Assembly: GCA_029552945.1 (NCBI GenBank)
Contig: JAKPDD010000046.1
Location: forward strand, 139,612-203,611
Source of the DNA: Spirochaetota bacterium
GTDB taxonomy: Bacteria > Spirochaetota > GWB1-36-13 > JAKPDD01
Direction of reading: 5' to 3'
DNA: 64,000 nucleotides
In this document: positions 616 to 59,299 of the stretch, piece by piece
How positions within the stretch are numbered: position 1 is the stretch's first letter
Layout: every line of letters starts with the position of its first letter
Notes under the pieces: model-generated
What the model saw: only the letters and a program-made list of their open reading frames with translations
What the model was told of the DNA's origin: nothing
Database searches by the model: none
Made by a program: the position numbers and the translations under genes

Positions 616-616
616 A

Positions 617-916
617 TTGGTGGTAATGTATATTGCAGCAGGTTATATTGAGTTTGATACAAGTGATTGTATGAGTCTTAAAGAAAGAAGAAGTGTGATA
701 AATAGTATTATACATAAAACAGTTTCTAAGTTTTCAAGAATATCTATAAATGAAGTTGGTGACTCAAATATTTTAAGTAAAGCTACTATTGGTGTTACTG
801 CTGTGTCTAATGATAAAAAGATAGCTGAATCAATGCTTTCAAGAGTATTAATGTATATAGAAAATGAATTATTTAGAAGTATTCACAGAATAGAGGTAAA
901 TGTTTTTGCCTTATAG
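617..916 (+). CDS. DUF503 (YlxP-like) family protein
   Basis: 99-aa ORF; TTG at 617, in-frame ATG at 626; SLKERRSVINSII and VSND motifs resemble the DUF503 family; starts 2 nt after the upstream stop. Confidence 0.5.
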   Translation: MVVMYIAAGYIEFDTSDCMSLKERRSVINSIIHKTVSKFSRISINEVGDSNILSKATIGVTAVSNDKKIAESMLSRVLMYIENELFRSIHRIEVNVFAL

Positions 917-9565: not shown

Positions 9566-11167
9566 ATGCTTTTTGTTTTTGACAAAAATTATAATCTTAT
9601 ATTTACCCAGTCTAAAGAATATAACTTTATTGAAGTATTAAGAGAGTTTGCATTATCTGATAAAAACTCTGAGACTATAAAATACGATGATAAAATTTAT
9701 TTTTTAACAAAGATCTCTGACTTAAATAATAATATTGCTATTAAAGTTGAAGATATTAGTGAAAATAAGATACCATCAGAAAAGTTGTTTAAATATTTTT
9801 TAAATGCGTTTGAACAGGCTTATGATGGGATTGTTATAACAGATGAAAATAATAATGTTATATATATAAACTCAAATTATGCAAGGTTTCTTGAAGTAAA
9901 TAAAGATGAGAGTATAGGTAAATATATAAAAGATGTTATAAAAGAGAGCAGAATACCTATAGTTTCTGAAACAAAAAAACCTGAAATTGGTTATGTTTGG
10001 GAAACAAAGGGAAAACCACTTCTTGTAAGTAGAATACCTCTTTTTGATAACGGCAGGTTTATAGGGGTTATAGGACTAATACTTTTTAGGAACTCAATAG
10101 AGGTTGCTCAATTTTTAAAAAAGATAGAGAAGATAGAAAAAGAGCTTGCATATTATAAAGAGTCTCAAAATTCAGATTGGTCAGCTAAATATGATTTTGG
10201 ATTTATAAAAACAAGAAGTAAGGAGGTTATTGGGATAATTGAAAGAGCAAAGAAGATTGCAGTAACTAATTCAAACGTTATTATAACTGGGGAGAGTGGG
10301 ACAGGAAAAGAGATTATTGCTCATGCAATACACCTGGCTAGTCCAAGGAGTAATAAACCTTTTGTAAGAATAAACTGTAGTGCTATTCCTGAAGAGCTTT
10401 TTGAATCAGAATTTTTTGGTTATGAAAAGGGTGCTTTTACAGGTGCAAAAGACTTAAAACAAGGAAAGTTTGAAATTGCAAACAGTGGTACTCTATTTCT
10501 TGATGAGATAGGAGACCTTCCTTTAAAAATGCAGGCAAAACTTCTTAGAGTTATCCAGGAAGGAGAAATTGAAAGAGTAGGCGGGACTAAACCTATTAGT
10601 GTTGATGTAAGGATAATTGCTGCAACTAATAAAAACCTTAAAGAACTTATTGAAAGAGGTTTGTTCAGAGAAGACCTTTATTATAGACTATCAGTTTTTC
10701 AAATTAATATGATACCTTTAAGAGAGAGGGTTGAAGATATAAGACTTTTATTTGATTATTTTTTAAAAGAATACATGGATAATATAGGATTCTGCGATAT
10801 AGCAGTTGATGAAGAGGTTTATAATATACTTGAAAAATATTCATGGCCAGGTAATGTTAGAGAATTGAAAAATGTAGTTGAAACTGTAAGTGTATCTCTT
10901 GAAGGATATAAGATAGGGCTTAAAGATATACCAGGTTATATTTTAAACTTTGAACTTAGTAAAAATGTAAAAGATTTAGATAAAAATTATTATAATCGTT
11001 ATAATAATATAAAGGAATATAAAACATCTATATTTGAGCTTGAAAAAAAATTGATAATAGATGCTTTGAATAAAGCTAACGGGAACAAGAAAAAAGCTGC
11101 CAAACTTCTTGGAATAGCAAGGAGCTTGTTATACAAAAAGATAAAAGACTTTGGAATTGAATTATGA
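9566..11167 (+). CDS. Sigma-54-dependent transcriptional activator with N-terminal PAS-like sensor, AAA+ domain and C-terminal HTH
   Basis: 533 aa; Walker [15 protein letters not shown] motif (YEKGAFTGA), arginine finger region, C-terminal Fis-like HTH; no receiver domain. Confidence 0.9.
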   Translation: MLFVFDKNYNLIFTQSKEYNFIEVLREFALSDKNSETIKYDDKIYFLTKISDLNNNIAIKVEDISENKIPSEKLFKYFLNAFEQAYDGIVITDENNNVIYINSNYARFLEVNKDESIGKYIKDVIKESRIPIVSETKKPEIGYVWETKGKPLLVSRIPLFDNGRFIGVIGLILFRNSIEVAQFLKKIEKIEKELAYYKESQNSDWSAKYDFGFIKTRSKEVIGIIERAKKIAVTNSNVIITGESGTGKEIIAHAIHLASPRSNKPFVRINCSAIPEELFESEFFGYEKGAFTGAKDLKQGKFEIANSGTLFLDEIGDLPLKMQAKLLRVIQEGEIERVGGTKPISVDVRIIAATNKNLKELIERGLFREDLYYRLSVFQINMIPLRERVEDIRLLFDYFLKEYMDNIGFCDIAVDEEVYNILEKYSWPGNVRELKNVVETVSVSLEGYKIGLKDIPGYILNFELSKNVKDLDKNYYNRYNNIKEYKTSIFELEKKLIIDALNKANGNKKKAAKLLGIARSLLYKKIKDFGIEL

Positions 11168-19697: not shown

Positions 19698-20618
19698 ATG
19701 AAAAAGATTGAAAAAATATCAACTGTTTTTATGTTCATAGGTTTTTTTATGATATTAACAATATTTATCCTTTTAGGTAAACAAAAGAAAATACTATATT
19801 CTAAAATTAACTTTTATACAATTATAAACACAGTAAAGGATGTAAACTCAGGACAGGATATACTATTGTTAGGCCCTGATACCCCTATTGGTAAGGTAAC
19901 AGGCTTTTCTGTAACTAAAGAGAATAAAGTTAAGGTTGAATTTTTTATATATAGTGAGTTTATAGATAAAATTAGAGAGGATTCGGCAATAGTTTTTATT
20001 CCACCTGCTTTGGGTTTTTTAGGGGGCATTACTATAAAAATGGTGCCAGGTACAGAGTATTATGCGATAAAAAAGGAGGGGGATGTAATACCATCAAATC
20101 ATATGTATGAAGGTGAATTCTTGCTTACATTAAGGGGAGTAAAAGGGAGTGATGATAAAATACCACTCCTTGATAAAGTTGGGCCATTACTTGAAAATAT
20201 TACCTCTGTTTTAGACCCAAAAGGGCCTTTTATGAGAAACTTGACTAATCTTACTTATTATCTTAGTATTTTTTCTATGCAATTAAGTCAGGGCGGTCTA
20301 TTTTCTGTTATTGGAAGTAATACAATAAAGACAAATATTGAAAGAATGATGGCTCAGATAAACTCTATATTAGCAACAAGTGATACTATTATGGCAAATG
20401 ATGTAAGAAACTCATTAGCAAGGGTGAACTTACTTCTAAATAATATAAAAACTTTAACAGATACAATAAATTATAATACTCCAAGGACAATGTCACAAAT
20501 AAATCTTATTCTATTTAGGCTTGAAAGAATGATTGCAAACCTTGAAAAAAGCCCACTATTTGGTGCAACTGGAACAAGAAAAACAGAAAAAAAACAGGAT
20601 ATTTTCATTGGAGAATAA
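19698..20618 (+). CDS. MCE/MlaD-like membrane-anchored protein
   Basis: 306 aa; N-terminal TM helix, MCE-like beta region, helical C-terminus; assignment by pattern only. Confidence 0.4.
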   Translation: MKKIEKISTVFMFIGFFMILTIFILLGKQKKILYSKINFYTIINTVKDVNSGQDILLLGPDTPIGKVTGFSVTKENKVKVEFFIYSEFIDKIREDSAIVFIPPALGFLGGITIKMVPGTEYYAIKKEGDVIPSNHMYEGEFLLTLRGVKGSDDKIPLLDKVGPLLENITSVLDPKGPFMRNLTNLTYYLSIFSMQLSQGGLFSVIGSNTIKTNIERMMAQINSILATSDTIMANDVRNSLARVNLLLNNIKTLTDTINYNTPRTMSQINLILFRLERMIANLEKSPLFGATGTRKTEKKQDIFIGE

Positions 20619-21963
20619 AGATAATAGAGGTACCATACTTGTTGTTGATGATGATTTAAGTGTAAGAGAGTTAATAAAGAATTTTCTTGAGAAAAACTCT
20701 TATAGAGTTTTAATTTCTGAAAACTGGATAAAAGCTGAACCTCTTATCTTAAAAAATAAGATTGATATTATCCTTTTAGATATTAATCTCCCATTTAAGA
20801 GTGGAATTGAAGTATTAAAAGAGAACAAAGATAGGTTTTTGGATACAAAAGTTATAATTTTTTCAGGCAAAAATGATATTGAACTTGCTGTTGAGGCTAT
20901 AAAGCTTGGTGCATTTGATTATGTTCAGAAGACAGACTCTATTGAAAAGATATTAAAAGTTATAGATAATGCTTTGAAGCTTAAAGTTCTTGAGGAAGAA
21001 AATAAGATTTTGAAAAAGAATTTAGCTCCTTTGAAATATATCAAAGGTATATCAAAGTTTTCTGAAGAGATAGATAAACTTATAAAAACAGCAGCCAGAA
21101 CTGATGCAACCGTACTTATTACCGGTGAAAATGGGACAGGAAAACAGGTAGTAGCAGAGACTATTCATAGTATGTCTTTAAGAAAACATGGGCCGTTTAT
21201 TGACATAAACTGTGCTGCAATACCTGAAACCTTACTTGAGAGTGAACTATTCGGGTATAAAAAAGGTGCTTTTACTGGAGCATATCAGGATACAAAAGGT
21301 AAGTTTGAGGCAGCATCAGGTGGTACAATATTTTTAGATGAGATAAGTGAAATACCAATAAGTTTACAGGCAAAGTTGTTAAAGGTTATTGAAAATAAAG
21401 AGTTTACTCCCTTAGGCTCAACACAAGTAAAAAAGCTTAATGCAAGAATAATAGCAGCTACTAATAAGAATCTAGAGGAGGAAATTTCAAATGGTAAATT
21501 CAGACAGGATCTTTTTTATAGATTAAATGTTATAAATATAAGTCTTTTGCCTTTAAGGGAAAGAAGAGATGATATACCTATATTACTTGAAAGGTTTATA
21601 AATAGTTCTGGTAAAGATATAAAATTAAGTAAGGATGCAATACAAATACTTATAGAATATGATTGGCCAGGTAATATTAGAGAGCTTAAAAACTTTGTTG
21701 AAAGGTGTACAGTCATGTCAGAGTCTGAACTAATAACCAAAGATGATGTTATAAAGTTTTTAAACCTCCGTAAAAATAATATTTTTCTTTCAATTCCAAA
21801 TTGTCATAATATAATGCCTTTAAAAGAGTTTCTAGAATGTAAAGAAAAAGAATATCTTGAGTTTATTGTATCAAGATATAAATATAAAAAAGAGATTGCT
21901 AGAATACTTAATATAGAAAGGACTGCTCTTTATAGAAAACTAAAAAAATATAATATCCAATAA
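20608..21963 (+). CDS. Sigma-54-dependent response regulator (receiver, AAA+, HTH; NtrC family)
   Basis: ORF track starts at 20533; a TTG at 20608 with RBS AGGA gives MENKDNRGTILVVDDD, a typical receiver start; GENGTGKQ, GAFTGA, C-terminal HTH. Confidence 0.85.
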   Translation: MENKDNRGTILVVDDDLSVRELIKNFLEKNSYRVLISENWIKAEPLILKNKIDIILLDINLPFKSGIEVLKENKDRFLDTKVIIFSGKNDIELAVEAIKLGAFDYVQKTDSIEKILKVIDNALKLKVLEEENKILKKNLAPLKYIKGISKFSEEIDKLIKTAARTDATVLITGENGTGKQVVAETIHSMSLRKHGPFIDINCAAIPETLLESELFGYKKGAFTGAYQDTKGKFEAASGGTIFLDEISEIPISLQAKLLKVIENKEFTPLGSTQVKKLNARIIAATNKNLEEEISNGKFRQDLFYRLNVINISLLPLRERRDDIPILLERFINSSGKDIKLSKDAIQILIEYDWPGNIRELKNFVERCTVMSESELITKDDVIKFLNLRKNNIFLSIPNCHNIMPLKEFLECKEKEYLEFIVSRYKYKKEIARILNIERTALYRKLKKYNIQ

Positions 21964-28139: not shown

Positions 28140-31100
28140 ATGGAAAATTATTTAGGATTATATGATCTTTTTTGCCCTAATTGTCACGGAATAAACTCTG
28201 ATAACAGAAATATACACAAATATCCATGCAGTTTATGTCTTGAAAAGTATGAAGAAAATAATAACAATAATAAGGATTACGTTGATTATGTATATCAAAT
28301 GTTGGTTGAAAATAAAAGTTTAAAAGATTATAAGGATATAAAAGACATTAAAGATAATTATAATAGATATAGAAAATTTTTTAAGAAGCTTATACTTGCT
28401 GAGCCATGGAGTATTCAGAGGTCATGGTTTAAGAGGGTATTAAAAAATAAGAGTTTTACTGCTTTAGCACCAACAGGAATTGGTAAAACAACATTCGGTA
28501 TTATTACAGCATTATATTATGCAGTTTACGAAAAAAAGAGATCACTTATAATTCTTCCAAATACAAGCTTGTTGCTTAATATAAAAGCTAAAATTGAGGA
28601 ATACTTAAATAAAATTAATAAAAGGCTAAATATACTATTTTATTCATCTTCTTTTATCAATACACCTTTAAAGAAAAAAGAGTTTTTTAAATTGCTTGAT
28701 AAAAACAAGTTTGATGTACTTGTTATTACTAATAATTTTCTTTCACGTAACTTTAAATCTGTTGAAAATAAGTTTTTTGACTTTGTATTTGCTGATGATA
28801 CTGATTCACTTTTAAGAACATCAAAAAATATAGAATATGTTTTAAAACTTATAGGCTTTTCAGATGATGATATTAAATTGGGTTATGAATATGTAAAGTC
28901 ATCATTTGTTTTTAGTAAAAAGTCAGGTGATAATGAGTTTTTAATCAATCATATTTCTCTTAAAAGACAACTTGAATCTTTAAGTATAAATAAGAAAATT
29001 GGTATACTTGTTTTATCTACTGCTACTAATAAAGCAAAAGGTATAAGAGTAAAGTTATTTAAAGCTTTATTATCTTTTGATATTGGTGAAAGGGCAAAGT
29101 CTGGCTCAAACGTTGTTGACCTTTATGATAGCTTTTCTATTGATAATCTTAGAAAGTATATTAAATTGCTTGGTAGTGGTGGAATTATATTTGTGCCTAT
29201 TTATAAAGGGCTTGAGTATGCCAATTATATTTTTGATTCTTTAAAAGATGAATTTATAGTAAAGGTTATTTCATCGGATAATGTAAAAAATATTATTGAA
29301 GAGTTTTCTGAAGGTAAAATAGATATTATAATTGGGGTTGCTTCATCATACGGTCTTCTTGTAAGGGGGATAGACCTTCCTGAAATTATACGATATGCAA
29401 TTTTTGTAGGGGTACCTTCTTATAAGTTTAAAGTTGATTTTTCAGGTGATAGTATTAATTCCTTTCAGCTTATAAGATTATTGGGTGCATTATCTTATGT
29501 TACTGAAGGAGAAGATAAATTAAAGATAGAAAGACAGTTAAAAACTTTAAAAAAGAATTATTTTAATACAAAAGTTGTAGAATATTCACTATTACTTGCA
29601 AAAGATTATATTAAAAGAAATGATATTGTTGAACTTTTGAAAAATACAAACGAGGTTATCTTTAAAGAGGATAAAGATGGTCAATATTTTCTTGTACCAG
29701 ATGTACCTACCTATATACAGGCTTCTGGAAGGACTTCAAGGTTGAGTATTGATGGTTTTACTAAAGGTCTTTCCATAATACTGGAAGATGATAGGAGGCT
29801 TATATCATTTTTAGAAAAGAGAATAAAGTGGCTTGAAGATAGGAGTATTAAAAATTTTAATGATGTTGATATAAGTAAAATAATCTCTCAAATTGATAAA
29901 GATAGAGAAAAAATAAAAATCTTGAAAGAACATAATAAAATAAAAGTTATTAAAGATAAAACATTTACAGCACTTATGATTGTTGAGTCTCCTACTAAAG
30001 CAAATTTAATAGCTAATCTAATAGGTAAGCCTACAACAAGGTATTTAAAATCAATGAATGTATATGAGGTTTCCTTAGGTAGTATGACTCTTATAATTGG
30101 TTCAATAATGGGACATATTTATGATATAACTACTGAAAATTATGGTTTTTATGGGGTAGATGTAGAGAATAATAGATATATTCCAAAATATCTGACTATA
30201 AAGGTTTGTAAAAAGTGTAAAAAGCAGTTTACATCTTATAATTCCTGCCCTTTGTGTGGTTCAGATGAGTTTTATGATAAAAAGGACATAATAATTGATC
30301 TTATAGAGGTCTCAAAAGAGGTTGATACTGTATTTATATCGACTGACCCTGATAGTGAAGGAGAGAAGATAGGATGGGATATCTATTCTTTATTATCGCC
30401 TTATGTTTCAAAAATAAAGAGGGTTGTTTTTCATGAGATAACTAAGAGGGGAATTCTTGAAGGATTCAAAAATATTGGTTTAATAAACCAATCTCTGGTA
30501 AAAGCTCAAATATTAAGAAGAATTCAGGATAGATGGATAGGTTTTAAGTTTTCCAGTGAATTAAAAGACTTTTTTGATGAATATAATATTTCTGCAGGTA
30601 GGGTCCAAACTCCAGTTTTAGGTTATATTATTGATAGAGTAGAGTATAATAAAAATAATAAAAGAAAATATTATAGAATAAAAACTGAGTTTTTTTCGGT
30701 TGATGTTCCAAAGGATGATATAAAAAATATAAAAAAAATAGATACTATTTTAATTGAGGATTCAAAGTATAAAAAGGAAAAAATAGCTCCTATGCCACCA
30801 TTTACGACTGATAGCCTGCTATCAAGTGTAAATAGGGTATTAAAACTGTCAGTTTCAGAAGCTATTAGTATTGCTCAAGACCTTTTTGAAAATGGTCTTA
30901 TAACATATCATAGAACAGACTCTATTCATGTTTCAGATTATGGTAAGAGCCTTGCATATGATTATATAAATGAAAAATTTAATAAAGATGTAATATATAC
31001 AAGGTCATGGGGTGAGGAAGGAACACACGAATGTATAAGGCCGACAAGAGGGCTTGATGTTAAAGAGTTGAGAGAAATGATATATGAAGGAGACCTTTTT

Positions 31101-31667
31101 GTTACTAAGAACATGACTCAGAAACATTTTTCTGTTTATGATTTAATATTTAAAAGGTTTATAGCTTCTCAGATGAGAGATGTAGTTGTTAAAAAGCAGG
31201 AACTAGATGTAAAAATAGATTCTTATTCTACCACTATTTCTTTAAATGTTGATATATATAAAGATGGTTGGAACCTTGTAAGTCCTATTAGTGTTGTTAA
31301 ACCTGTAAAGAAAAAGAGTATAAAAATAGATTCTAAAGAAAAGTTTGTAAAACCTGATAAACCACTATTTGACCAGGCTAGTGTAATAGAGATAATGAAA
31401 GAAAGGGGACTTGGTAGACCTTCAACATATAGCCAGATAATATCGACTTTATTATCAAGGGGTTATATTATTGAGGGTAAGTATAATAAACTTATTCCCA
31501 CTAAAAAGGGTGTTAGTGTATATAAATATCTTATTGAGAAATATAAAAACATTTTTTCTGAAGAGAGAACAAGGGCATTAGAAGAATTAATGAAAGAGAT
31601 TGAAAATGGAAGAAAAGATTACAAAGAAATTTTATCAGATATTTATAATGAAATAAAAACAAACTAG
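28140..31667 (+). CDS. rgy: Reverse gyrase (helicase-like domain fused to type IA topoisomerase)
   Basis: 1175 aa; N-terminal zinc finger CPNCHG...C..C, helicase motif I APTGIGKTTFG after IQRSWFKRV, TOPRIM LMIVESPTKA, catalytic-Tyr region LITYHRTDS. Confidence 0.9.
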   Translation: MENYLGLYDLFCPNCHGINSDNRNIHKYPCSLCLEKYEENNNNNKDYVDYVYQMLVENKSLKDYKDIKDIKDNYNRYRKFFKKLILAEPWSIQRSWFKRVLKNKSFTALAPTGIGKTTFGIITALYYAVYEKKRSLIILPNTSLLLNIKAKIEEYLNKINKRLNILFYSSSFINTPLKKKEFFKLLDKNKFDVLVITNNFLSRNFKSVENKFFDFVFADDTDSLLRTSKNIEYVLKLIGFSDDDIKLGYEYVKSSFVFSKKSGDNEFLINHISLKRQLESLSINKKIGILVLSTATNKAKGIRVKLFKALLSFDIGERAKSGSNVVDLYDSFSIDNLRKYIKLLGSGGIIFVPIYKGLEYANYIFDSLKDEFIVKVISSDNVKNIIEEFSEGKIDIIIGVASSYGLLVRGIDLPEIIRYAIFVGVPSYKFKVDFSGDSINSFQLIRLLGALSYVTEGEDKLKIERQLKTLKKNYFNTKVVEYSLLLAKDYIKRNDIVELLKNTNEVIFKEDKDGQYFLVPDVPTYIQASGRTSRLSIDGFTKGLSIILEDDRRLISFLEKRIKWLEDRSIKNFNDVDISKIISQIDKDREKIKILKEHNKIKVIKDKTFTALMIVESPTKANLIANLIGKPTTRYLKSMNVYEVSLGSMTLIIGSIMGHIYDITTENYGFYGVDVENNRYIPKYLTIKVCKKCKKQFTSYNSCPLCGSDEFYDKKDIIIDLIEVSKEVDTVFISTDPDSEGEKIGWDIYSLLSPYVSKIKRVVFHEITKRGILEGFKNIGLINQSLVKAQILRRIQDRWIGFKFSSELKDFFDEYNISAGRVQTPVLGYIIDRVEYNKNNKRKYYRIKTEFFSVDVPKDDIKNIKKIDTILIEDSKYKKEKIAPMPPFTTDSLLSSVNRVLKLSVSEAISIAQDLFENGLITYHRTDSIHVSDYGKSLAYDYINEKFNKDVIYTRSWGEEGTHECIRPTRGLDVKELREMIYEGDLFVTKNMTQKHFSVYDLIFKRFIASQMRDVVVKKQELDVKIDSYSTTISLNVDIYKDGWNLVSPISVVKPVKKKSIKIDSKEKFVKPDKPLFDQASVIEIMKERGLGRPSTYSQIISTLLSRGYIIEGKYNKLIPTKKGVSVYKYLIEKYKNIFSEERTRALEELMKEIENGRKDYKEILSDIYNEIKTN

Positions 31668-34414: not shown

Positions 34415-35848
34415 ATGGGGAGTTTAAAGGAATATGTTGAATTGCTTATAATAGATGATGAAGAGATTACAGGACTTACTATAAGAGATTATTTTAGAGC
34501 AATAAGTGGAGAAAGCGTATCTTATAATGTTTCATATTTTTCTGACTCAAAAGAGGGTTTTGAATATTTCAAAAATAATGATATTGATGTTGTTATACTT
34601 GATATAATGTTGAAAGAAGGTGATGGGATGGAACTTTTAAAGAAAATGAAGTCTTATAAACCTGAAACTGAGATAATTATTCTTACTGGCTATGGTAGTG
34701 GTGATAAAAGTATTACTGCACTAAGGTTGGGTGCTTTTGATTTTTTAAGTAAACCTTTTGGACTTACTTCACTTGAAAAAATAATACTTAAGGCTTACAG
34801 TAAAAAAATAATGGCAACTGAAAACAGGATAACAAGCATAATAGAGAATAAAATTTCTGAACTTGAAAAGTCTATTGGCAAAGAGGAGAGTTTTATTGGC
34901 AATGATTCAAAAATAAAAGAGATAATAGGGCTTGTATCAGAGATATCTAAGACAGATTGTAATGTACTTATTCAGGGAGAAAGTGGAACAGGTAAAGAAC
35001 TTATAGCAAGACTTATACATAAGAGTAGCCTTAGGAGTCAAGAACTTTTTTTCCCTATAAACTGTGGTGCAATACCTGAGAACCTTCTTGAGTCCGAACT
35101 TTTTGGTTATGAGAAAGGTGCATTTACTGGTGCTACTAACAGAAAACTTGGTCTATTTGAAGTTGCAACAAAAGGTACAATATTTCTTGATGAAATAGGG
35201 GACCTTCCTATAACATTCCAGGTTAAATTACTTAGAGTTCTTGAAAGAGGTGAGTTTAATAGGGTTGGTGGAACAAAAATACTTAAAACTGAAGCAAGAA
35301 TAATATCAGCAACAAATAAGGACCTTAAAAAAGAGGTTGAAGAGGGTCTTTTTAGAAGGGATCTTTATTACAGGCTTAATGTTATAACAATTACCCTTCC
35401 ACCTTTAAGAGAGAGGAAGGCAGATATACCTTTACTTATTGAATATTTTATTAAGAAAAATGAGAGAAATACTAACAGAAAAATTGAAATATCAAAAGAG
35501 GCCATGCAAATTTTAATTAATTATAATTGGCCAGGAAATGTAAGAGAACTTCAAAATGTTGTAGATAGAATAATAATATTAACTAATAATAATGTTGTGA
35601 CGCCAGAAACAGTTACAAGAGCTCTATCTATGCACGATAACTCTTCTCAATTAATTTCAATAGACAATAAAGATTATGTTCAACTTGTTAGAAAAGACGA
35701 ACTTATAACTCTTGAAGAATTGGAGAAGAGGTATATATCATATTTATATAAAAAAACAGGGGCTAATAAAAGTAAGACTGCCTATCTACTTGGTATATCT
35801 GAGAGAACACTTTATAGAAAGATGAAGCAATATGATATTGATTTTTAG
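34415..35848 (+). CDS. Sigma-54-dependent response regulator (NtrC family)
   Basis: 477 aa; receiver (LLIIDDEE, VVILDIML), [15 protein letters not shown]-terminal HTH. Confidence 0.9.
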   Translation: MGSLKEYVELLIIDDEEITGLTIRDYFRAISGESVSYNVSYFSDSKEGFEYFKNNDIDVVILDIMLKEGDGMELLKKMKSYKPETEIIILTGYGSGDKSITALRLGAFDFLSKPFGLTSLEKIILKAYSKKIMATENRITSIIENKISELEKSIGKEESFIGNDSKIKEIIGLVSEISKTDCNVLIQGESGTGKELIARLIHKSSLRSQELFFPINCGAIPENLLESELFGYEKGAFTGATNRKLGLFEVATKGTIFLDEIGDLPITFQVKLLRVLERGEFNRVGGTKILKTEARIISATNKDLKKEVEEGLFRRDLYYRLNVITITLPPLRERKADIPLLIEYFIKKNERNTNRKIEISKEAMQILINYNWPGNVRELQNVVDRIIILTNNNVVTPETVTRALSMHDNSSQLISIDNKDYVQLVRKDELITLEELEKRYISYLYKKTGANKSKTAYLLGISERTLYRKMKQYDIDF

Positions 35849-44300: not shown

Positions 44301-45295
44301 TGAGAAGTAACTTTGCTTTCTATTTTTTTAATTCTCCTTATGAGGATCCTGTTCTTTATGTGGAGCAGCTTAATTCAAGAGATAACCTTGTTTTTGATCT
44401 TGGTGATGTATCAAAAGTACCTAATTCTCTACTTATGAGAATAAAGTGGGTTTTTATATCCCATGCCCATATAGACCATTTTTGTGGTTTTGTAAAGTTT
44501 TTAAGGACAATCTTAAAAATTGTTGGCAAAGAGGTATATGTCTTTGGACCTGAAGGTATTGCTGATAATGTGGAAGGGGTCTTAAAATCATTTACTTGGA
44601 ATCTTATAGATAATTATAACATTAAGTTTTATGTAAAAGAGATAGGGAGCAGAATAAAAACATACTTTTTTTCTTCATCTGAAAAGTTTTCAAAAGAACT
44701 TATTTCTGAGAGTGATTTTACAGATTTAATTCTGGATGAAGAAAGTTTTCTAGTTAAAACCTCTATAATGGACCATAAAATACCTGTGTTAGGTTTTAGA
44801 CTTGAAGAAAAAAATAGATATGCTGTTGATAAAGAAAGACTTTTAGCATTTGAACTTAAGCCTGGTAAATGGCTTACTGATGTAAAAAAAAAATTAATTA
44901 AAGATGAGATTGATGATTATATCAAAGTTGATAATAAGGTTTTTAAAATAAGAGAACTTGTCGAGAGCAAAATACTTTTTCTCAAAAAAGCTCCCTCTCA
45001 TGCTTATATTACTGATATTGGTTTTACAAAAGATAATTTTATAAAGGCCTGTTCTCTGTCAAAAGATGTTAAAAACCTTTTTATAGAGACTCATTTTACC
45101 CATAAAGAGATTGATATGGCAAGAAAAACATATCATCTTACTGCTTATCAGGCTGGTATAATTGCAGGTGCATCAAGAGCTGAGAGGGTAAGAATATTTC
45201 ATTTTTCTCAAAGATATATTAAGAATAAAATAGGAGAGAAAGAACTTTATTATGAACTTAATAAAGCAAGGTCTTTATTTGGTTACAATTTTTAA
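44300..45295 (+). CDS. Metallo-beta-lactamase fold hydrolase (RNase Z-like)
   Basis: 331 aa; HxHxDH motif (ISHAHIDHFCGF); TAATG overlap with the hydE stop. Confidence 0.55.
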   Translation: MRSNFAFYFFNSPYEDPVLYVEQLNSRDNLVFDLGDVSKVPNSLLMRIKWVFISHAHIDHFCGFVKFLRTILKIVGKEVYVFGPEGIADNVEGVLKSFTWNLIDNYNIKFYVKEIGSRIKTYFFSSSEKFSKELISESDFTDLILDEESFLVKTSIMDHKIPVLGFRLEEKNRYAVDKERLLAFELKPGKWLTDVKKKLIKDEIDDYIKVDNKVFKIRELVESKILFLKKAPSHAYITDIGFTKDNFIKACSLSKDVKNLFIETHFTHKEIDMARKTYHLTAYQAGIIAGASRAERVRIFHFSQRYIKNKIGEKELYYELNKARSLFGYNF

Positions 45296-46701
45296 ACTTC
45301 CTCATTTATTTCTTCTTCATTTTCATCAGAATTATCGTCAGAAGAACTTGTACCAAAATATTCATACAACTTTCTGTGAAGTGTTTTTCTGCCAATATTC
45401 AGTATTTTAGCTGCTTTAGACTTATTGTTTTTGACAAACTTCAGTGTTGACAAAATATATATTTTTTCAACTTCACTTAGCGGGAGACCAAGATTTATTT
45501 TTACAAAGTCTTTCTCAATTATCTCACTTTTTATATGAGGAGGAATATCTTTTTCTGTTATTTCATTTCCTCTCGCAAGTACAACCATACCTTCAATCAA
45601 GTTTCTAAGTTCTCTTATATTTCCTGGCCATGAATATGATTCTAATATAGCCATAGCTTTTGGCGATATAGTAAGCATTGGCTTATTGTTTATCTGACAA
45701 AACTCTTTTATAAAAGCATTAACAAGTAATGGAATGTCATCTTTTCTTTCTCTTAAGGGTGGCATTTTTATTGATACAACTTTTAATCTATAATATAGAT
45801 CTTCTCTGAAGTTTTTTTTCTGTACTTCTTGTAGTAGATCTCTATTTGTAGCTGTTATTACTCTTACATCAACCTTTATTGTTTTTGTTCCACCAACTCT
45901 TTCAAACTCTTTTTCCTGCAATACTCTTAACAATTTTACCTGAATAATTGGAGAAATCTCGCCTATTTCATCTAAAAATAGTGTCCCACCATCAGCAAGT
46001 TCAAACCTTCCCTTTTTCATTGCTATTGCACCTGTAAACGCACCTTTTTCATGACCAAATAGCTCTGATTCGAGAAGGTTTTCGTTAAGGGCTGCACAGT
46101 GTAGTTTTACAAGTGGTTTATCTGCTCTATCACTTAACCTGTGAATAGCATTTGCTATTAACTCTTTTCCTGTTCCACTTTCACCTTCTATAAGTACAGT
46201 TGCTTTTGTTGGTGCAACCTGCTTTACAATATCCATTACGCTTTTAAGTGATGATGAACTTCCTATTATATTTTCAATTCCATATTTTTCATTAAGTTGT
46301 TTTTTAAGTTCTATGTTTTCAAGTATTATATTTTTTTCTTTTATTGCTCTTTCTATTGTTAGTATTAGTTTATCAATATCAACTGGTTTTGTAAAAAAGT
46401 CATATGCACCCTTTTTCATTGATTCGACAGCAGTTTCAACATTACCATGGCCTGTAAGCATTATTACTTTTATATATGGTTTAATGTTATTTATCATTTC
46501 AAGTAATTTTGTACCACTTATTACTGGCATTTTTATGTCTGTTATTACTAAATCAAAATCATTATTTTTTATAAACTCAAAAGCTTCTTCACCATTTGAT
46601 GCTGTTTCAATATTATATCCTTCAAGTTCAAGGGTTTTTTTAAGACCTTCTCTTATATTTTTTTCATCATCAACTATAAGTATATTTCCTGTTGTGTTCA
46701 T
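45292..46701 (-). CDS. Sigma-54-dependent response regulator (NtrC family)
   Basis: 469 aa; receiver ([16 protein letters not shown]), [15 protein letters not shown]-terminal HTH, acidic tail. Confidence 0.9.
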
Positions 46702-50478: not shown

Positions 50479-53400
50479 ATGAGTAGTATTGTAAAAAATC
50501 TTATTTTTCTTTTTGTTTTAATATTATTTTACTCAATTATAACACTTTTATTAAACTTCAAGGTTGAGTCTGATAGAAAGTTAAGAAAAAAAACAACTAA
50601 TAATATTTTTATTTTACTTTTTGGTTTTAGTTCATCTTTTTTAGTTCTTGATCTATGGTTATTATTAAGTTCTGTTGGTATTTATAATACATTTGGCTGG
50701 TGGGGAGGCTATGCTTTTTTAATTGGTGTTCTAGTAGGGATTTTCTTTTTATCTATGGTATATAAAAGACTTCAGTATTCTTTTAAAAGATATAAAATAT
50801 ATACACCATTTGATTTTTTATCATTTAGGTACCCTGGCTTTAATTTTATATCAAAGGTAGCTAATTATATATTTATGTTAGCATTTTTTCCAATGATTTT
50901 TTTTCAAGTTAAAGTTTTACAGGTACTATTATTTCCTGATATATCTTCATATCTAGGCCTGGCAATAATAATATTCCCTATGCTTATACTATTTCTTTTT
51001 AATGATAATAAAGATAAAAGAGTTCCTTATCTTTTTATTGCTTTTCTTGGTATAGTTTTTATGGTAGCAGGTATATTTGCAAATTATAACACAATTTCAC
51101 AATTATATTTTATTAAACCTAAAATAAGTAATTTTTTAGTAGCTATTCTTTTAGGATTCTCTTTTTATCTTATTATGCCGAGGAACTTTTCAGCTTATTC
51201 ATATAAAAAGATTGATTTTTCTGAGATAGATTCTACAAGAAGAAAGTTTTTTATATCTCTTATTATAGGTGTTATACTTTTATTAAACATCCTGCCTTTA
51301 GGTGGGTTTTATGTAAGTAATAACTTTTTAAGTTTAATTTTAGTATTAACTGTTGCATGTGGTGTTGGAATTTCTCAGTTATTCGCTATTAAGTCTATTA
51401 TATACTCTGGTTTAAAAAGGTATAACACATATTCTATGATGCATGTATCTATAATATCAATTTTTATTTATGTAATACTTACGTTTTTATTTAATTATTT
51501 TATTGAATTGAAAAATATTAACTATAGTAGATTATATATCTGGTCTATTTCTATTCTTCCTATAATTGTTGTTCCCTATATAGGCGGGTTATTTATTAAA
51601 AGGGCAAGGAGTATAAACTTTTATTTAAGTCTTATAGCTGGGCTTATAGTATGGTATCATATGGTTGTAAATGAAGAAATATTGGGTTTTACTATAAGTT
51701 TATTAAAAATCAAGTTTACTACTGAAACTCAGATCTTTTATCCATTTTTAGCATCATTAATATTCTTTATAATTCCACTACCGTTTATAAGAAAAGCTCC
51801 TGAAAATGTAAGAATTTTACTTGAACCTGAAAGTATCGTTATTGAGAGTTTTCTTGAAAAATATGATGATTACAAAAGTTTACTTTATACAAAAGAGGGC
51901 TTAAAAGTATTTATATTGTTTTTTGATAGAAAAAATGAGTTTTTTACAAAAGAGTTTCTAGTTTATATTACTAAATTACCAAGAACAAGGTTAACAAGTA
52001 TATTAGAGGCATTAAAAAAGTTTGGATTTATTGAACAATACGGTGAATATTACACATATAAAAAACAGGATAAAGAGTTTGAAAGACTTTTGGATAAACT
52101 TATAATAGGATATCATGCTGTTGAGAATTTATTAAGATATAAAGCGGAGAAAGACTTTGAAGAATATAGAATTAATGTTATAAAGAAAACAGATGAAATT
52201 GAAACTCATTTTAATATGCTTGAACTTCTCAATGAGGTTTCTAAAGGTCTTTCTAATATAACATCATTTAATGAATTATATAGAAAAATAACGTCTCTTG
52301 TTGTGAATAATCTTGGGTTTGAATGTTCTGAGTTTTTTATGATTAAGAAAAATAATGATAAATATGAGTTTGTCCCTGTTTCTCTATTTTTCTCAAATTA
52401 TAGACACTTAATGTCATCACTTGATTTTTATTCAAGCTATGTTAAGAATAATGAATACATGATGGCAGCTCTTAATAAAGCTATAAATGAAAATATTGTT
52501 GTAATAAATGACCCGAAAGAAATTGAAAAACTTAATACACTTGAAAAATATAGTTCAATAGGTTTTTCACTAATTGTTCAGGATAATCAGCCTTTTGCAA
52601 TATTAGTCTATGGTTATATGAGTGAAGGAAGGACAGTTACATCATCTGACTTGCAAAAAATAGATTTTATTATAAACAATCTTACTCAGACATCTATTAT
52701 TATTTCTTTGTATGAAAGTTTGGAAGAAAAAATAAGACAAAGAACAGCTGAGTTAGAAAAGGCTAACCAGGAATTAAAAGTATTTAACCAGAAATTAAGT
52801 GCATTAAACAAAGAGATAAAAAGGGAAATGATGACAGCATCTTCTATACAAAAGGCTATTTTACCTTCTGAATTTCCTTATCCAGATTATGTTGAAATAG
52901 CTGCGAAATTAAAAGCAATGCCAGACCTTACACTTACTGAAGAAGAGAGAAAAAGGATAGATATCAGTGGTGACTACTATGATGTATTTGATATGGGAGA
53001 TGGTAAGATAGGTATTCTTATAGCAGATGTTACAGGTCATGGTATACCATCAGCTTTAATTACAACAATGGCTAAAATATCATTTTATACTCATGCTATT
53101 GATGGTGGTTCAACAGCAGAAATATGTGATAGAGTAAACAAAGATATTTATGAAGCTATTGGTATAGGTGATACTGGTTTTTATGTAACAGTATTTTTTA
53201 GCATATATGATACAAAAACTGGTAAAATCCAATTTACAAATGCAGGACATCATAAAGGTATTCTTGTTAGAAATAATGGAAGAATAGAATATTTAGATAC
53301 ACAGGGATTTTTTATAGGTTCGTTTGAGGGTGTTGAATATAATTATGGCGAAGCTTATTTTGATGAAGGAGATACTTTTATTTTATATACTGATGGTATA

Positions 53401-53991
53401 GTTGAGCAAAAATCTGAAAAAGATGAGTTTTATGAAGAGATATTTTATAATAAGTTATCTTCAATTTCCGCTAAAAAGCCAAGTGAATTTGTTGAACATA
53501 TATTTTCTGATATAGATGTTTTTAGAGGTTCTTATCCTATTAAGGATGATATGACATTGATTGTTTTAAGAGTAAAAAAGGTTATTGAAAGACCAACTTC
53601 TGAAAAAACAAGTGCTAATATAACTGAGATTTCTTCTCTTATAAAAGATATTATTGAGGAATATAATTCCAAAAAAAAGCTATCAGACAAAAATTTATCA
53701 GTATTAAATAATATAATAGATGATGTTAATAATCCTACACTTTATTACATAAAAGCTATGATTGAGTTTAAAGAGAATAATTTTGAGATATCATCTAAAT
53801 ATTTTAAAAAAGCATTGTCCTTATTAAAACAACCAAATACAATACTTTTAAATAATGCTGGGGTATCATTTTATAAAACAGGTGATTATCAGGAAGCTAA
53901 GAAATGTTGGGATAAAGTTTTGTCAATAGATCCTAATAATGCTAATGCACTTAAAAATATAAAACTTTTAGAAAATAAAAAATTAACTTAA
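50479..53991 (+). CDS. Multidomain sensor phosphatase: 13-TM transporter-like domain, GAF-like region, coiled coil, PP2C/SpoIIE serine phosphatase, C-terminal TPR
   Basis: 1170 aa; about 13 hydrophobic helices in the first 440 residues; PP2C-like motifs ISGDYYDVFD, ADVTGHGIPSAL, ILYTDGIVEQ; TPR-like C-terminus. Confidence 0.7.
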   Translation: MSSIVKNLIFLFVLILFYSIITLLLNFKVESDRKLRKKTTNNIFILLFGFSSSFLVLDLWLLLSSVGIYNTFGWWGGYAFLIGVLVGIFFLSMVYKRLQYSFKRYKIYTPFDFLSFRYPGFNFISKVANYIFMLAFFPMIFFQVKVLQVLLFPDISSYLGLAIIIFPMLILFLFNDNKDKRVPYLFIAFLGIVFMVAGIFANYNTISQLYFIKPKISNFLVAILLGFSFYLIMPRNFSAYSYKKIDFSEIDSTRRKFFISLIIGVILLLNILPLGGFYVSNNFLSLILVLTVACGVGISQLFAIKSIIYSGLKRYNTYSMMHVSIISIFIYVILTFLFNYFIELKNINYSRLYIWSISILPIIVVPYIGGLFIKRARSINFYLSLIAGLIVWYHMVVNEEILGFTISLLKIKFTTETQIFYPFLASLIFFIIPLPFIRKAPENVRILLEPESIVIESFLEKYDDYKSLLYTKEGLKVFILFFDRKNEFFTKEFLVYITKLPRTRLTSILEALKKFGFIEQYGEYYTYKKQDKEFERLLDKLIIGYHAVENLLRYKAEKDFEEYRINVIKKTDEIETHFNMLELLNEVSKGLSNITSFNELYRKITSLVVNNLGFECSEFFMIKKNNDKYEFVPVSLFFSNYRHLMSSLDFYSSYVKNNEYMMAALNKAINENIVVINDPKEIEKLNTLEKYSSIGFSLIVQDNQPFAILVYGYMSEGRTVTSSDLQKIDFIINNLTQTSIIISLYESLEEKIRQRTAELEKANQELKVFNQKLSALNKEIKREMMTASSIQKAILPSEFPYPDYVEIAAKLKAMPDLTLTEEERKRIDISGDYYDVFDMGDGKIGILIADVTGHGIPSALITTMAKISFYTHAIDGGSTAEICDRVNKDIYEAIGIGDTGFYVTVFFSIYDTKTGKIQFTNAGHHKGILVRNNGRIEYLDTQGFFIGSFEGVEYNYGEAYFDEGDTFILYTDGIVEQKSEKDEFYEEIFYNKLSSISAKKPSEFVEHIFSDIDVFRGSYPIKDDMTLIVLRVKKVIERPTSEKTSANITEISSLIKDIIEEYNSKKKLSDKNLSVLNNIIDDVNNPTLYYIKAMIEFKENNFEISSKYFKKALSLLKQPNTILLNNAGVSFYKTGDYQEAKKCWDKVLSIDPNNANALKNIKLLENKKLT

Positions 53992-56304: not shown

Positions 56305-56658
56305 TTGTATCTGGAGGTATTTATGCAAAATAGTAGCAAGATTAAAGCAGTTTTTCTATTAGCTGTATTAATTATTATAACAGGTTTGATAATCTATTTT
56401 TCAAGCTCAAATAATGTTGCAACAGACGGCCATATAAAAGATATATCATTGATTGATTTAAATAGAGAAATAATAAATACTCAAAAGGTTGTAGTTGATA
56501 CTAAAAATATTATAGAGTCAGTTAACTCAAAAATAAACTTTATGATATTTCTGACAATACTAAATATAATTATATCATCAATTGTTATTTTCTTTACTAT
56601 TATTAAAAGGAGAGAAAAAGATATTAATAACAAGAATGTTGAAAAAAATATTTCTTAA
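56305..56658 (+). CDS. Small membrane protein
   Basis: 117 aa with two predicted TM helices; overlaps the putative lptC start. Confidence 0.3.
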   Translation: MYLEVFMQNSSKIKAVFLLAVLIIITGLIIYFSSSNNVATDGHIKDISLIDLNREIINTQKVVVDTKNIIESVNSKINFMIFLTILNIIISSIVIFFTIIKRREKDINNKNVEKNIS

Positions 56659-57181
56659 TATTTTACTTTTTATTATTTTGACGTACTGTAGTCAACCAAA
56701 TGTTGAGGATGAAATTAAGGAATATAAAGATATAAGTAGATTTTCAGCTGAAAATTATATTTATGTTTCTTATAAAAATAATAAACCAAATATGTTTTTA
56801 AGTAGTGAAAGTGTGAATTATGATAACAAGACTTCTAATTTTGTTATGGATAATGTTATCTCTAAAATAGATTCAGGATATAATGAATACAGTTATATAC
56901 TATCAAAGAAAGGTATTTATAACCTTGAGAATAAAACAACCACATTTTTTGAAAATGTTAAAATTGTTGTTGAAGATAGGTATTTACTTGAGGGTACTTT
57001 TTTCAGGTGGAAAGGGAGTGAATCTGTACTCGAGACAAACCCCGGGACTCCAATCCTTATAAGGGATAAGTCTGGTTTATTAGTAAGTGGATATGATTTT
57101 AAGCTTGATACAAATACAAAAAGGTTTTATATTACAAATGTGTCTATGTCATTACCAGAGTCTGATAATGAAGGCTTTTAG
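56636..57181 (+). CDS. LptC-like LPS export protein
   Basis: ORF track starts at TTG 56582; ATG at 56636 gives an N-terminal membrane anchor MLKKIFLNILLFIILTY followed by a beta-jellyroll-like region; lies directly upstream of OstA-like and LptB genes. Confidence 0.45.
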   Translation: MLKKIFLNILLFIILTYCSQPNVEDEIKEYKDISRFSAENYIYVSYKNNKPNMFLSSESVNYDNKTSNFVMDNVISKIDSGYNEYSYILSKKGIYNLENKTTTFFENVKIVVEDRYLLEGTFFRWKGSESVLETNPGTPILIRDKSGLLVSGYDFKLDTNTKRFYITNVSMSLPESDNEGF

Positions 57182-58316
57182 ATTAATATTTTTTTATTTT
57201 ATTTTTTTTATTCCTTTAACATTATTATCTGAAATTATTATAAAATCTAATAGTATGGATGTTGATTACAGAAATAATTATTTTACACTTAATGGTAATG
57301 TTTCTGTTAATACAAAAGATTATTTTATGACAGCTGATAATCTTATATATAAAAAACAGGAAAAAACTATTATGGCAAGTGGAAATATTGTCATTGAGTT
57401 TATAAAAGATAAGAGAAGAGTTAATGCGAATACTATGATTAAAGACAAGTCATCAACTTTTTTTACAGGAAATCCAGTTCGTTTTGTTGATTTTGATAAA
57501 GAGAGAACAATAGATGGCAATTCTATAAGAATAATTAAGAAAGACAATGATGAGAGTATATATGTAGATGGTAATGTAGTTATAACTACTGATAAAATGA
57601 AGATAGAATCAGAGAAAATTGAATACTACTCTTCTCAGAAAATAATGCTAATAAATGGTAAGTCTATTATCAAAAAGGATGATTATTCTATAAAAACATA
57701 TGGTATAAAATATATTGAAGATGAAAAATTATTAATATTTGATAAAGAGACAGAAATTGAGAAAAATAAAATGAGTGTTCTTGCAAAGAAGGGTTTTTAT
57801 AATGAAAAAGAGGATTTGATTGATACAGAGGATGTCATATATAAAAAAGATGATACTATTATATTGTCTGAAAAACTTAAAAGTTTTAAAAGTAATAATT
57901 CAAATATTTATAGTTTTAAAGGCGTGCGAGAAATTAAAGATAAAAACATGAAAGGAAAAACAAAAGAGATTGAATATGATGAAAAAAATGATATTCTAGT
58001 AATGAAAGGTGATGCTTTCATTCAGGATACAGAAAAAGACCTGGATATAATATCAGATGTTATAAGAATGGATAGAAAACAAGATAAAGCATTTTTAGTT
58101 GGCTCAGTTAATATAAGACAAAAGGATAAGGTTATAACAAGTAGTATTGGTTATTATGATAAAAAAAATGATAAAATAGTAATGACTGGTAATCCTATTT
58201 ATAAAAAGGGAAATGATATAACGTATGCACAGGTTATTATACTTGATACAAAAACAAATAATGTTATAATGCAGGGCGAGATCAAAGGCAAATTTGATAT
58301 CAGGAAGGTAAAATAA
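57168..58316 (+). CDS. LptA/OstA-like periplasmic protein (long form with repeated OstA-like segments)
   Basis: ORF track starts at 57087; ATG at 57168 begins a signal peptide MKAFRLIFFYFIFFIPLTLLS; repeated motifs (TGNPV, MTGNPI, GNVVITTD); about 380 aa, longer than typical LptA. Confidence 0.55.
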   Translation: MKAFRLIFFYFIFFIPLTLLSEIIIKSNSMDVDYRNNYFTLNGNVSVNTKDYFMTADNLIYKKQEKTIMASGNIVIEFIKDKRRVNANTMIKDKSSTFFTGNPVRFVDFDKERTIDGNSIRIIKKDNDESIYVDGNVVITTDKMKIESEKIEYYSSQKIMLINGKSIIKKDDYSIKTYGIKYIEDEKLLIFDKETEIEKNKMSVLAKKGFYNEKEDLIDTEDVIYKKDDTIILSEKLKSFKSNNSNIYSFKGVREIKDKNMKGKTKEIEYDEKNDILVMKGDAFIQDTEKDLDIISDVIRMDRKQDKAFLVGSVNIRQKDKVITSSIGYYDKKNDKIVMTGNPIYKKGNDITYAQVIILDTKTNNVIMQGEIKGKFDIRKVK

Positions 58317-59299
58317 TGGAAAATATAGATGAATTAAAAGCAAAAATAACTGAACTTGAAACTACAATAAAGGCTTATGAAAATATATTAGAACTTACAG
58401 CTAAAGAGCAGAAACAACTTTATTCTCAGCTTGAGGCTTATGAAAAGCTCTTTGAAATGTCCCAGACAGAAATGAAAGAGATAATAAAAAAACAGGAGGA
58501 AGAACTTGATATTGAAAGAGTTAAGAAGGAGACAGAAGAGATTAGACTTAAAAGAATAAAAGGATTTGAGGATATAAAATTATCAACACTTGATATAGTA
58601 AAAAGATTTGGAAGTGTTACAGCAGTTGATCATGTTTCTTTAGAATTAAGAAGGGGTGAGATTGTTGGCTTGTTGGGGCCAAATGGTGCTGGTAAAACAA
58701 CGACTTTTTATATTATAGTTGGTCTTGAAAAACCAGATTCAGGCTTAATTTTTTTTAATGATAAAAACATTACTAAAATGCCAATGTATAAACGTTCCAG
58801 ACTTGGAATAAATTATCTTCCTCAGGAACCATCAGTATTTAGAGGAATGAGTGTAAAAGATAATATAATGTCTATACTTGAGATAAGACAGGACCTTGGT
58901 AAAAACGAAAAAAAGAGAAAGCTTGAAGAATTATTGGAAAAGCTTGATATAGAATATATTGCAAATACACCAGCATATGCTTTAAGTGGTGGTGAAAGGA
59001 GAAGGGTTGAGATAGCAAGAGCATTAGCATCTGAACCTATATTTTTACTTCTTGATGAGCCTTTTGCGGGTATAGACCCTATTGCTGTTCAAGAAATACA
59101 GAACATTATAAAAAAATTGGTTGATGAGACTGGAGTTGGGATATTAATAACTGACCATAATGCAAGAGAGACATTAAGAATAACAGATAGGGCCTATATT
59201 ATTGTTGAGGGTAGTATATTTGCAAGCGGACACTCTGTTGAACTTGCACACAGTCAAAAAGTTAAAAAAATATATCTTGGTGATAATTTTAAGCTCTGA
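58316..59299 (+). CDS. lptB: LPS export ABC transporter ATP-binding protein LptB with about 85-aa N-terminal coiled-coil extension
   Basis: 327 aa; residues about 88-327 align with LptB (GLLGPNGAGKTTTFY, LSGGERRRVEIARAL, LLLDEPFAGIDP, ITDHNARETL); ATG overlaps the lptA stop as TAATG; no alternative start near the ABC domain. Confidence 0.8.
   Translation: MENIDELKAKITELETTIKAYENILELTAKEQKQLYSQLEAYEKLFEMSQTEMKEIIKKQEEELDIERVKKETEEIRLKRIKGFEDIKLSTLDIVKRFGSVTAVDHVSLELRRGEIVGLLGPNGAGKTTTFYIIVGLEKPDSGLIFFNDKNITKMPMYKRSRLGINYLPQEPSVFRGMSVKDNIMSILEIRQDLGKNEKKRKLEELLEKLDIEYIANTPAYALSGGERRRVEIARALASEPIFLLLDEPFAGIDPIAVQEIQNIIKKLVDETGVGILITDHNARETLRITDRAYIIVEGSIFASGHSVELAHSQKVKKIYLGDNFKL

Follow-up and report, generated by a model that had tools for sequence, protein, structure and literature searches.

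A conserved, predicted coiled-coil arm at the N terminus of an LptB ATPase from uncultured Spirochaetota

The 64,000-nucleotide stretch of Spirochaetota DNA analysed here (contig JAKPDD010000046.1, positions 139,612 to 203,611; hereafter the window) carries an lptB gene whose 327-residue product consists of a bona fide LptB ATPase core preceded by an arm of 88 residues that is very probably translated, is conserved in three other lineages and carries the heptad pattern of a coiled coil built from a 21-residue repeat. LptB is a homodimer beneath LptF and LptG (LptB2FG), an essential machine and drug target whose ATPase subunit, of about 240 residues, is considered minimal. The proposal put forward here is that the gene is a genuine lptB read from the ATG at 58316, that its 88-residue arm is translated and that the arms pair as a dimerising or regulatory stalk on LptB2; taken as a whole this is given an even chance, and the homodimeric stalk considered by itself an even or slightly smaller one.

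Results

An intact LptB preceded by 88 residues

The features of the gene are listed below in window coordinates; homologous proteins carry P numbers and related loci L numbers.

58316..59299, plus strand: full-length lptB with its N-terminal extension, 327 amino acids plus stop; the identical 327-residue protein (P0138) is called on 7 contigs
58302..58308, plus strand: Shine-Dalgarno-like AGGAAGG, read from the sequence, 7 nt before the lptB ATG and within the 3' end of the lptA-like gene
58316..58579, plus strand: N-terminal extension, residues 1-88, conserved in P0001, P0003 and P0004 and with heptad periodicity
58319..58363, plus strand: partial repeat copy 1, residues 2-16, ENIDELKAKITELE, matching positions 6-20 of a repeat hidden Markov model (HMM) built from non-LptB proteins only
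58364..58426, plus strand: repeat copy 2, residues 17-37, TIKAYENILELTAKEQKQLYS, with 21-residue spacing of xIxAYE and a repeat HMM domain E-value of 7e-11
58427..58489, plus strand: repeat copy 3, residues 38-58, QLEAYEKLFEMSQTEMKEIIK, with 21-residue motif spacing and a match to the repeat HMM
58490..58579, plus strand: charged linker, residues 59-88, ending in a conserved predicted helix and turn that lead into strand beta-1
58574..58576, plus strand: ATA (Ile87) in place of the canonical LptB Met codon, start of the 241-residue protein in public NCBI records
58580..59296, plus strand: LptB ABC ATPase core, residues 89-327, with a TIGR04406 score of 345 bits, the LptB motifs and the fold of solved LptBs

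The reading frame from 58316 to 59299 is unbroken and encodes 327 residues, as had been read in the initial annotation, and the TAATG overlap described there is present, the TAA of the lptA-like frame occupying 58314-58316 and the ATG of lptB 58316-58318 with one base shared. The first in-frame ATG, GTG or TTG codons are those of residues 1, 48 and 53, and the next are those of residues 119 and 120 within the Walker A region; none falls between Met53 and the Walker A region, in agreement with the earlier statement that no canonical start lies near the ABC domain. The ABC core, which had been placed from about residue 88, begins at residue 89 by its match to TIGR04406, and Pfam ABC_tran covers residues 105-251. 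A sequencing error that merged a separate small open reading frame (ORF) with lptB, one of the two findings named at the time as able to overturn the annotation, was considered and rejected, since assemblies made independently show the same unbroken frame: it is present on 7 contigs for the window protein and on 6 or more for P0001, and P0003 and P0004 each have contigs of their own.

Several tests identify the core as a true LptB. It scored 345.1 bits with the NCBIfam LptB equivalog TIGR04406 (cutoff 240), whose profile positions 2-239 of 239 align to residues 89-327, and its motifs are intact: Walker A GPNGAGKTT (121-129), Q-loop LPQE, signature LSGGERRR, Walker B LLLDEPF and H-loop TDHN. 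Residues G121-T129, Q170, S224-R230, D247-F250, D280 and H281 are invariant across 51 homologues, and the other motif residues L168, P169, L244, L245 and T279 are invariant among the 10 closest. The core is 48-54 % identical to solved LptB structures, and a Foldseek comparison of the AlphaFold2 model with the LptBs of E. coli, Vibrio, Enterobacter, Acinetobacter and Burkholderia gave E-values of 1e-26 to 1e-31, target-normalised TM-scores of 0.85-0.95 and root-mean-square deviations of 1.6-2.6 Å. Equivalog match, motifs, fold and gene order thus all agree with membership of the LptB family; the protein departs from the canonical single-ABC-domain architecture of about 240 residues in that 88 residues precede the ABC domain.

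Translation of the extension

The extension had been taken to be translated, and this is borne out by its conservation as protein in three other lineages, by purifying selection and by the Shine-Dalgarno-like sequence before the first ATG; on these sequence data, a real extension translated from the ATG at 58316 is considered very probable. The homologues that aligned over the full query, arm included, were P0001 (329 residues, 85 % identical) and P0003 and P0004 (361 residues, 63-64 %), with arm identities to the window of 82 % for P0001 and 38-41 % for P0003 and P0004. The extended genes come from genomes of 28, 33 and 45 % guanine plus cytosine (GC), and 24 arm columns are invariant among the four extended proteins across a divergence of about 60 %. 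Against L001, the proportions of synonymous and non-synonymous differences (pS and pN) were 0.75 and 0.087 in the arm (omega about 0.02) and 0.58 and 0.10 in the core. Purine-rich Shine-Dalgarno-like runs lie 5' of all four long-form ATGs (window, L001, L004 and L010). Where canonical LptB has its Met, the window and L001 read ATA and L010 reads TAT (Tyr), and only L004 has ATG; the start of a short form is therefore lost in three of the four lineages, and the arm would be obligatory there for making any LptB.

Initiation at one of the two internal in-frame ATGs, Met48 or Met53, would yield a shorter extension of about 35-40 residues and leave the first 47 codons untranslated. These codons, however, hold the best-conserved repeat copy, which P0003 and P0004 also have, and codons 4-47, which precede the first internal ATG, differ from L001 by 14 synonymous-only differences and 6 amino-acid changes. 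The Shine-Dalgarno-like sequence precedes the first ATG, with no similar purine run before codon 48 or 53, and an internal start is judged very unlikely.

In public NCBI records (P0002; HOJ49272.1, HOM37833.1 and HPQ49290.1) the protein is instead given as 241 residues beginning MKLSTLD and 100 % identical to the window LptB from residue 88 on, unlike the JGI, ENA and Logan gene calls of 327 residues. An ATA start at 58574, as used by this annotation (PGAP), is permitted as a rare initiator in translation table 11 and gives a product of family-typical length with the upstream 258 nt outside the protein, but four lineages share an open upstream frame that is conserved as protein and shows purifying selection, the equivalent TAT of L010 cannot initiate, the GAGG only 2 nt before the ATA is poorly spaced, and lptA directly abuts lptB in arm-less relatives, so that a 258-nt non-coding spacer would be anomalous; this reading is considered extremely improbable. 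The 241-residue form is regarded as a homology-driven truncation, in which pipelines guided by homology cut the protein back via the ATA start and hide the extension, and such variants are therefore invisible in reference databases.

Periodicity and predicted structure of the arm

The arm comprises about 2.7 copies of a 21-residue (three-heptad) repeat with the motif tIxAYExhxELsxxE, which span about 60 residues and are followed by the charged linker, whose closing helix and turn carry R77, K79, G83 and D86, invariant among the four extended proteins. The initial annotation, which quoted residues 13-44 (ELETTIKAYENILELTAKEQKQLYSQLEAYEK), had called the segment before the ABC domain charged and heptad-like, and both descriptions hold. 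Of its 88 residues 23 are acidic, 17 are basic, one is glycine and none is proline, and their 3.5-residue hydrophobic periodicity lay above that of 2000 of 2000 shuffles of the segment. In the same test the observed value was reached by 2 shuffles for P0001, 1 for P0004 and 32 for P0003. The a/d register runs without a break from about residue 4 to about 60, with mostly I, L, F or M at a and mostly L, Y or I at d. A hendecad (11- or 22-residue) periodicity was rejected, as the spacing is exactly 21 and the power at 3.67 residues is negligible.

Models of the window protein and of P0004 were run separately in AlphaFold2, but on one shared set of 51 sequences. In the window model the core has a pLDDT (predicted local distance difference test score) above 90 and the arm forms helices at residues 4-24, 29-63 and 66-80 at a pLDDT of 65-79, with about 94 for residues 71-88; in the P0004 model helices are placed at 35-59, 63-80, 84-97 and 100-115, the last with a pLDDT of 82-91. 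Common to both is a last arm helix placed confidently beside strand beta-1 of the ATPase domain, and the models suggest that the last linker helix docks on this domain.

The 21-residue repeat in other proteins

Among 1.84 billion representative proteins, only 11 matched a profile built from the four arms at E <= 1e-3. Besides P0001, these included the SpoIIE/PP2C phosphatases P0121 and P0122, the GGDEF or GGDEF-PilZ proteins P0126 and P0127, and small standalone proteins of 159-208 residues (P0123, P0125 and P0130). In all of these the repeat, there with the motif tIxAYExhxELsrxE, is present in tandem, at the N termini of the SpoIIE and GGDEF proteins, with an exact 21-residue spacing across P0121-P0130, and all named sources of the repeat proteins are Spirochaetota metagenome-assembled genomes (MAGs). 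In the reciprocal direction, an HMM built from non-LptB repeat units only was searched against all stop-to-stop ORFs of the AT-rich window together with 120 LptB homologues, and its matches were limited to the four extended LptBs (window, E = 2.3e-15; P0001, 8.6e-15; P0004, 2.8e-12; P0003, 1.5e-8; Z = 1000), the next best having an E-value of 0.26.

No Pfam family covers the repeat: a search with the extension alone gave nothing but coiled-coil noise (TRAF_BIRC3_bd, OmpH and Bacillus_HBL), all far below cutoff. Literature searches on an N-terminal extension of LptB and on a 21-residue repeat returned nothing relevant, and we found no earlier description of either an N-terminal coiled-coil LptB or this repeat, whose family is unnamed and without a Pfam model. 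As a separate observation, a repeat protein and an extended lptB each have a gene for a STAS-domain protein (anti-sigma antagonist type) no more than a few kb away (L059 1088..1426 near P0123, and L004 9959..10297 near the P0004 lptB). SpoIIE-type phosphatases act on STAS proteins; the proximity may be coincidence.

Distribution of the arm among LptBs

The earlier claim that canonical LptB has no such extension was upheld: none of the solved LptB structures has the arm, and 116 of the best 120 homologues lack it too. The twelve closest LptBs formed one clade in 196 of 200 bootstraps of a neighbour-joining tree of the core (about 240 sites). The alignment of orthologues that had been proposed as a check of conservation gave a divided answer: the arm is kept in P0001, P0003 and P0004, but only 4 of the 12 members of this Spirochaetota clade carry it. 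The extended LptBs are rare and fall into four clusters at 90 % identity, all from uncultured Spirochaetota, and the protein identical to that of the window is likewise attributed to Spirochaetota MAGs. The nearest canonical-length LptBs (P0005, P0006 and P0008), of 241-254 residues, are encoded by genes that an lptA-like gene abuts or overlaps; these relatives have no room for an arm, and the difference is therefore not merely one of annotation.

Wider searches added little. When GTDB representative genomes were scanned for motifs of the extension, none of 415 pattern matches was confirmed, and a scan with the full protein returned only distant LptBs (<=58 % identity) and no close relative; both are weak negatives, the scans being pattern-based. 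A metagenome scan with the extension alignment recovered the window's own contig and two P0001-type contigs only. Word-index protein searches with the extension alignment and with a 42-residue double-repeat alignment found nothing at E <= 1e-3, the former missing even P0001, and these empty results probably reflect the limits of candidate selection and of E-value scaling for short, biased queries rather than absence.

Discussion

A proposed stalk on the LptB dimer

In the arrangement favoured here, the two arms of LptB2 would pair below the ATPase dimer, and the last helix of each charged linker would pack beside the N-terminal beta-strand of the ATPase domain. The stalk so formed would hold the protomers together, adjust their ATP-driven opening and closing, or do both. 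Pairing is the likeliest arrangement because LptB is homodimeric and because, in this phylum, the repeat also stands in front of GGDEF cyclases and SpoIIE/PP2C phosphatases, catalytic domains that depend on dimerisation or on binding a partner. The presence of the arm is a solid observation and its link to signalling proteins an intriguing one; we infer its pairing, the oligomeric state of the coil and any effect on ATPase activity or transport.

Several results weigh against this proposal. Eight of the twelve closest LptBs, and thus most close relatives, manage without an arm, so it is not needed for basic function, and the four arm-bearers were monophyletic in 0 of 200 bootstraps of the core tree because P0003 and P0004 group with the arm-less P0005-P0007. 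Hydrophobic residues also occupy e, g and c positions, which is compatible with more than one oligomeric state. AlphaFold2 gave the coil a pLDDT of only 60-79 and broke its helix at the E-h-S/T-x-x-E sites of the repeat, which look like helix capping boxes; the two models do not agree on the breaks, and a hairpin or bundle fits them as well as a continuous parallel coil does. Both models are of monomers. The link to the repeat family comes from short, compositionally biased matches, and since the hmmsearch bias scores are high (15-23 bits against full-sequence scores of 30-52 bits) the E-values given above should be read conservatively. Finally, work with LptF and LptG and lipopolysaccharide (LPS) as cargo are assumed, because the 64-kb window contains no lptF, lptG, lipid A (lpx) or LPS-synthesis genes.

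Other possible roles for the arm

The repeat might instead act as a docking code that binds LptB to repeat proteins of the same cell and so couples lipid export to signalling. Its place at the head of SpoIIE phosphatases (P0121 and P0122) and of GGDEF or GGDEF-PilZ proteins (P0126 and P0127) is consistent with such a role, as are the small proteins P0123, P0125 and P0130, which consist wholly of repeat, the particular closeness of P0125 to the arms of P0003 and P0004, and the restriction of named sources to Spirochaetota. Yet neither the window nor the flanking DNA of related lptB loci yielded a separate ORF with the repeat, which might also have served as the source of a fusion; nothing around the genes of P0122 and P0123 points to Lpt; and coiled-coil repeats commonly homodimerise. 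Heteromeric docking is considered unlikely.

Slightly less probable again is that the arm is a dispensable accretion, a mobile cassette of coiled-coil repeats that came to lie at the 5' end of lptB, has little effect on transport and is being lost in places. Its patchy, non-monophyletic occurrence would fit, and could have arisen by a single gain followed by several losses or by transfer of the arm, which are indistinguishable on this neighbour-joining tree. P0006 and P0007 (L008 3144..3908) retain only a 13-residue N-terminal stub, MTNDLREGFRSQD-MVL (..LREGFRSQD-M), which resembles the linker end of the extended proteins (RIKGFED-IKL) and may be the remnant of a lost arm. Among carriers the arm varies from 88 to 122 residues, the first 25-30 residues of P0003 and P0004 being unconserved and of very low pLDDT. 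Against a dispensable cassette speak purifying selection on the arm that, between the window and L001, is at least as strong as that on the core, the 24 invariant columns and the loss of the canonical Met in three lineages.

A more specific version of partner binding was also entertained, in which the repeat is a phylum-restricted protein pairing code that wires the Lpt ATPase to PP2C partner-switching or cyclic di-GMP proteins bearing the same repeat. This is thought rather improbable, but if true it would mean that outer-membrane lipid export is switched by cytoplasmic signalling; to our knowledge no such regulatory input has been described for any Lpt machine.

Comparison with known systems

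The closest reference is the canonical LptB of LptB2FG(C) (E. coli; PDB 4P31, 6MHU, 6S8G and 5X5Y), with which the window protein shares motifs, fold and the lptC-lptA-lptB gene order, but which is without the 88 extra N-terminal residues; the window has ATA for the canonical Met codon. Solved LptB chains (241-282 residues, some apparently longer than native) align from their own residue 5-42 or so to window residue 90-94, and none of those compared has an N-terminal extension of the window type.

Extra modules on dimeric transporter ATPases have precedents. The C-terminal regulatory domains of MalK, MetN and ModC and the C-terminal 'handshake' tail of MlaF hold the ATPase subunits together or gate their closure, and they offer a working analogy for the stalk, in logic only: these modules are C-terminal beta-rich domains or short tails, unlike the N-terminal repeat coiled coil of the window, and no sequence relationship of the arm to them was found. 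The repeat signalling proteins (P0121-P0127 and P0130) share with the arm the motif, the 21-residue period, reciprocal profile matches and a position N-terminal to a catalytic domain, but carry 3-7 or more copies before signalling domains, compared with 2.7 (about 3 in P0003 and P0004) before a transport ATPase in LptB. SMC and Rad50 proteins also join an ABC ATPase head to a long coiled coil, one that splits the head into its two halves and doubles back; the window coil instead precedes an uninterrupted transporter-type domain. An SMC-like architecture was rejected for this reason, Pfam SMC_N scoring 20 bits over the core against a cutoff of 40.

Additions of other kinds occur among the best 120 LptB homologues. 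P0066, P0112 and P0050 have about 100 extra C-terminal residues, so that LptB tolerates terminal additions, and C-terminal extensions of about 60-150 residues (ELKRKDYLHEEARGE...) are seen across P0066, P0112, P0050, P0102 and P0049, one of which has a precomputed match to PF25199. P0027 (291 residues) carries an N-terminal CxxC...CxxC segment of about 50 residues (MICQKCFTENPDQSKYCSNCG) that is zinc-ribbon-like. The add-ons of P0027, P0066, P0112 and P0050 are unlike the window arm in position or fold, and none contains the 21-residue repeat.

As a natural LptB variant with a conserved, predicted coiled-coil arm, the window protein indicates that this ATPase can take a cytoplasmic add-on, and the occurrence of the same repeat on signalling enzymes gives a starting point for examining whether Lpt activity is under cytoplasmic control. 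Among spirochaetes, the Borrelia burgdorferi genes bb0464-bb0466 form an lptC-lptA-lptB locus in the same order as in the window, and BbLptB is described as very similar to known LptB homodimers, with no mention of an N-terminal extension; BbLptA has 231 residues (PMC10353723). Borrelia has Lpt homologues but no LPS (PMC10353723), and the cargo of spirochaete Lpt systems, that of the window included, therefore cannot be assumed to be LPS.

Genomic context

The lptB gene is the last of an lptC-lptA-lptB block, whose other members are as follows.

56582..57181, plus strand: lptC-like gene, first in the block, given as the extent of the ORF with no start codon assigned within it; TIGR04409 LptC E = 2.2e-6 and Pfam LptC E = 0.004, both under the curated cutoffs
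57168..58316, plus strand: lptA-like gene, 382 amino acids from the ATG of MKAFRLIFF..., with Pfam LptD_N at E = 4e-20 in 3 stretches and tandem OstA/LptD_N-type regions

The order lptC-lptA-lptB is kept in relatives, with a gene in the position of the lptC-like gene in L001, L004, L006 and L008, and in the window the gene 3' of lptB is convergent. The tight lptA/lptB junction is also seen in relatives without the extension and is therefore not special to it.

The mechanical ORF of the lptA-like gene opens earlier, at a GTG at 57087. Its protein scored 64 bits against the TIGR03002 LptA cutoff of 71.7 and is twice the usual length, and it is designated only LptA-like. Its relatives have 388-400 residues (L001 3835..5001, L004 3845..5011, L006 2815..4017 and L008 1957..3147). 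At 382-400 residues with two to three OstA/LptD_N-type stretches, the LptA-like protein is about twice as long as canonical LptA and resembles a tandem beta-jellyroll bridge, which is conceivably suited to the wide, flagella-containing spirochaete periplasm.

Before lptC lies a small ORF (56305..56658, plus strand), which has a counterpart in every related locus examined (L001 2995..3315, L004 2878..3270, L006 1978..2277 and L008 936..1388); the products, of 99-150 residues, are membrane-like by prediction and belong to no confident family. Judged by position, this ORF and lptC-lptA-lptB may form a conserved four-gene block. Two genes 5' of the lpt block the window encodes a SpoIIE phosphatase of 1170 residues with C-terminal TPR repeats (50479..53991, plus strand). 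In the syntenic L001, where the SpoIIE gene lies at 1..659, a small ORF and dxs separate it from the lpt block; the position of the SpoIIE-TPR gene is conserved in the P0001 lineage, and the protein is without the 21-residue repeat.

The window has a GC content of 28 % and carries the flagellar genes fliF and fliG. Four sigma-54-dependent activators are encoded within its 64 kb (9566..11167, 20533..21963 and 34415..35848 on the plus strand and 45292..46701 on the minus strand), three with receiver domains and one with a PAS domain. Also present is a reverse gyrase of 1175 residues (28140..31667, plus strand; TIGR01054 1196 bits against a cutoff of 472) with helicase, Toprim and topoisomerase IA domains. 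Reverse gyrase is a marker of thermophiles, and its pairing with a genome of 28 % GC is unusual; thermophily may bear on the presence of a stabilising coiled coil.

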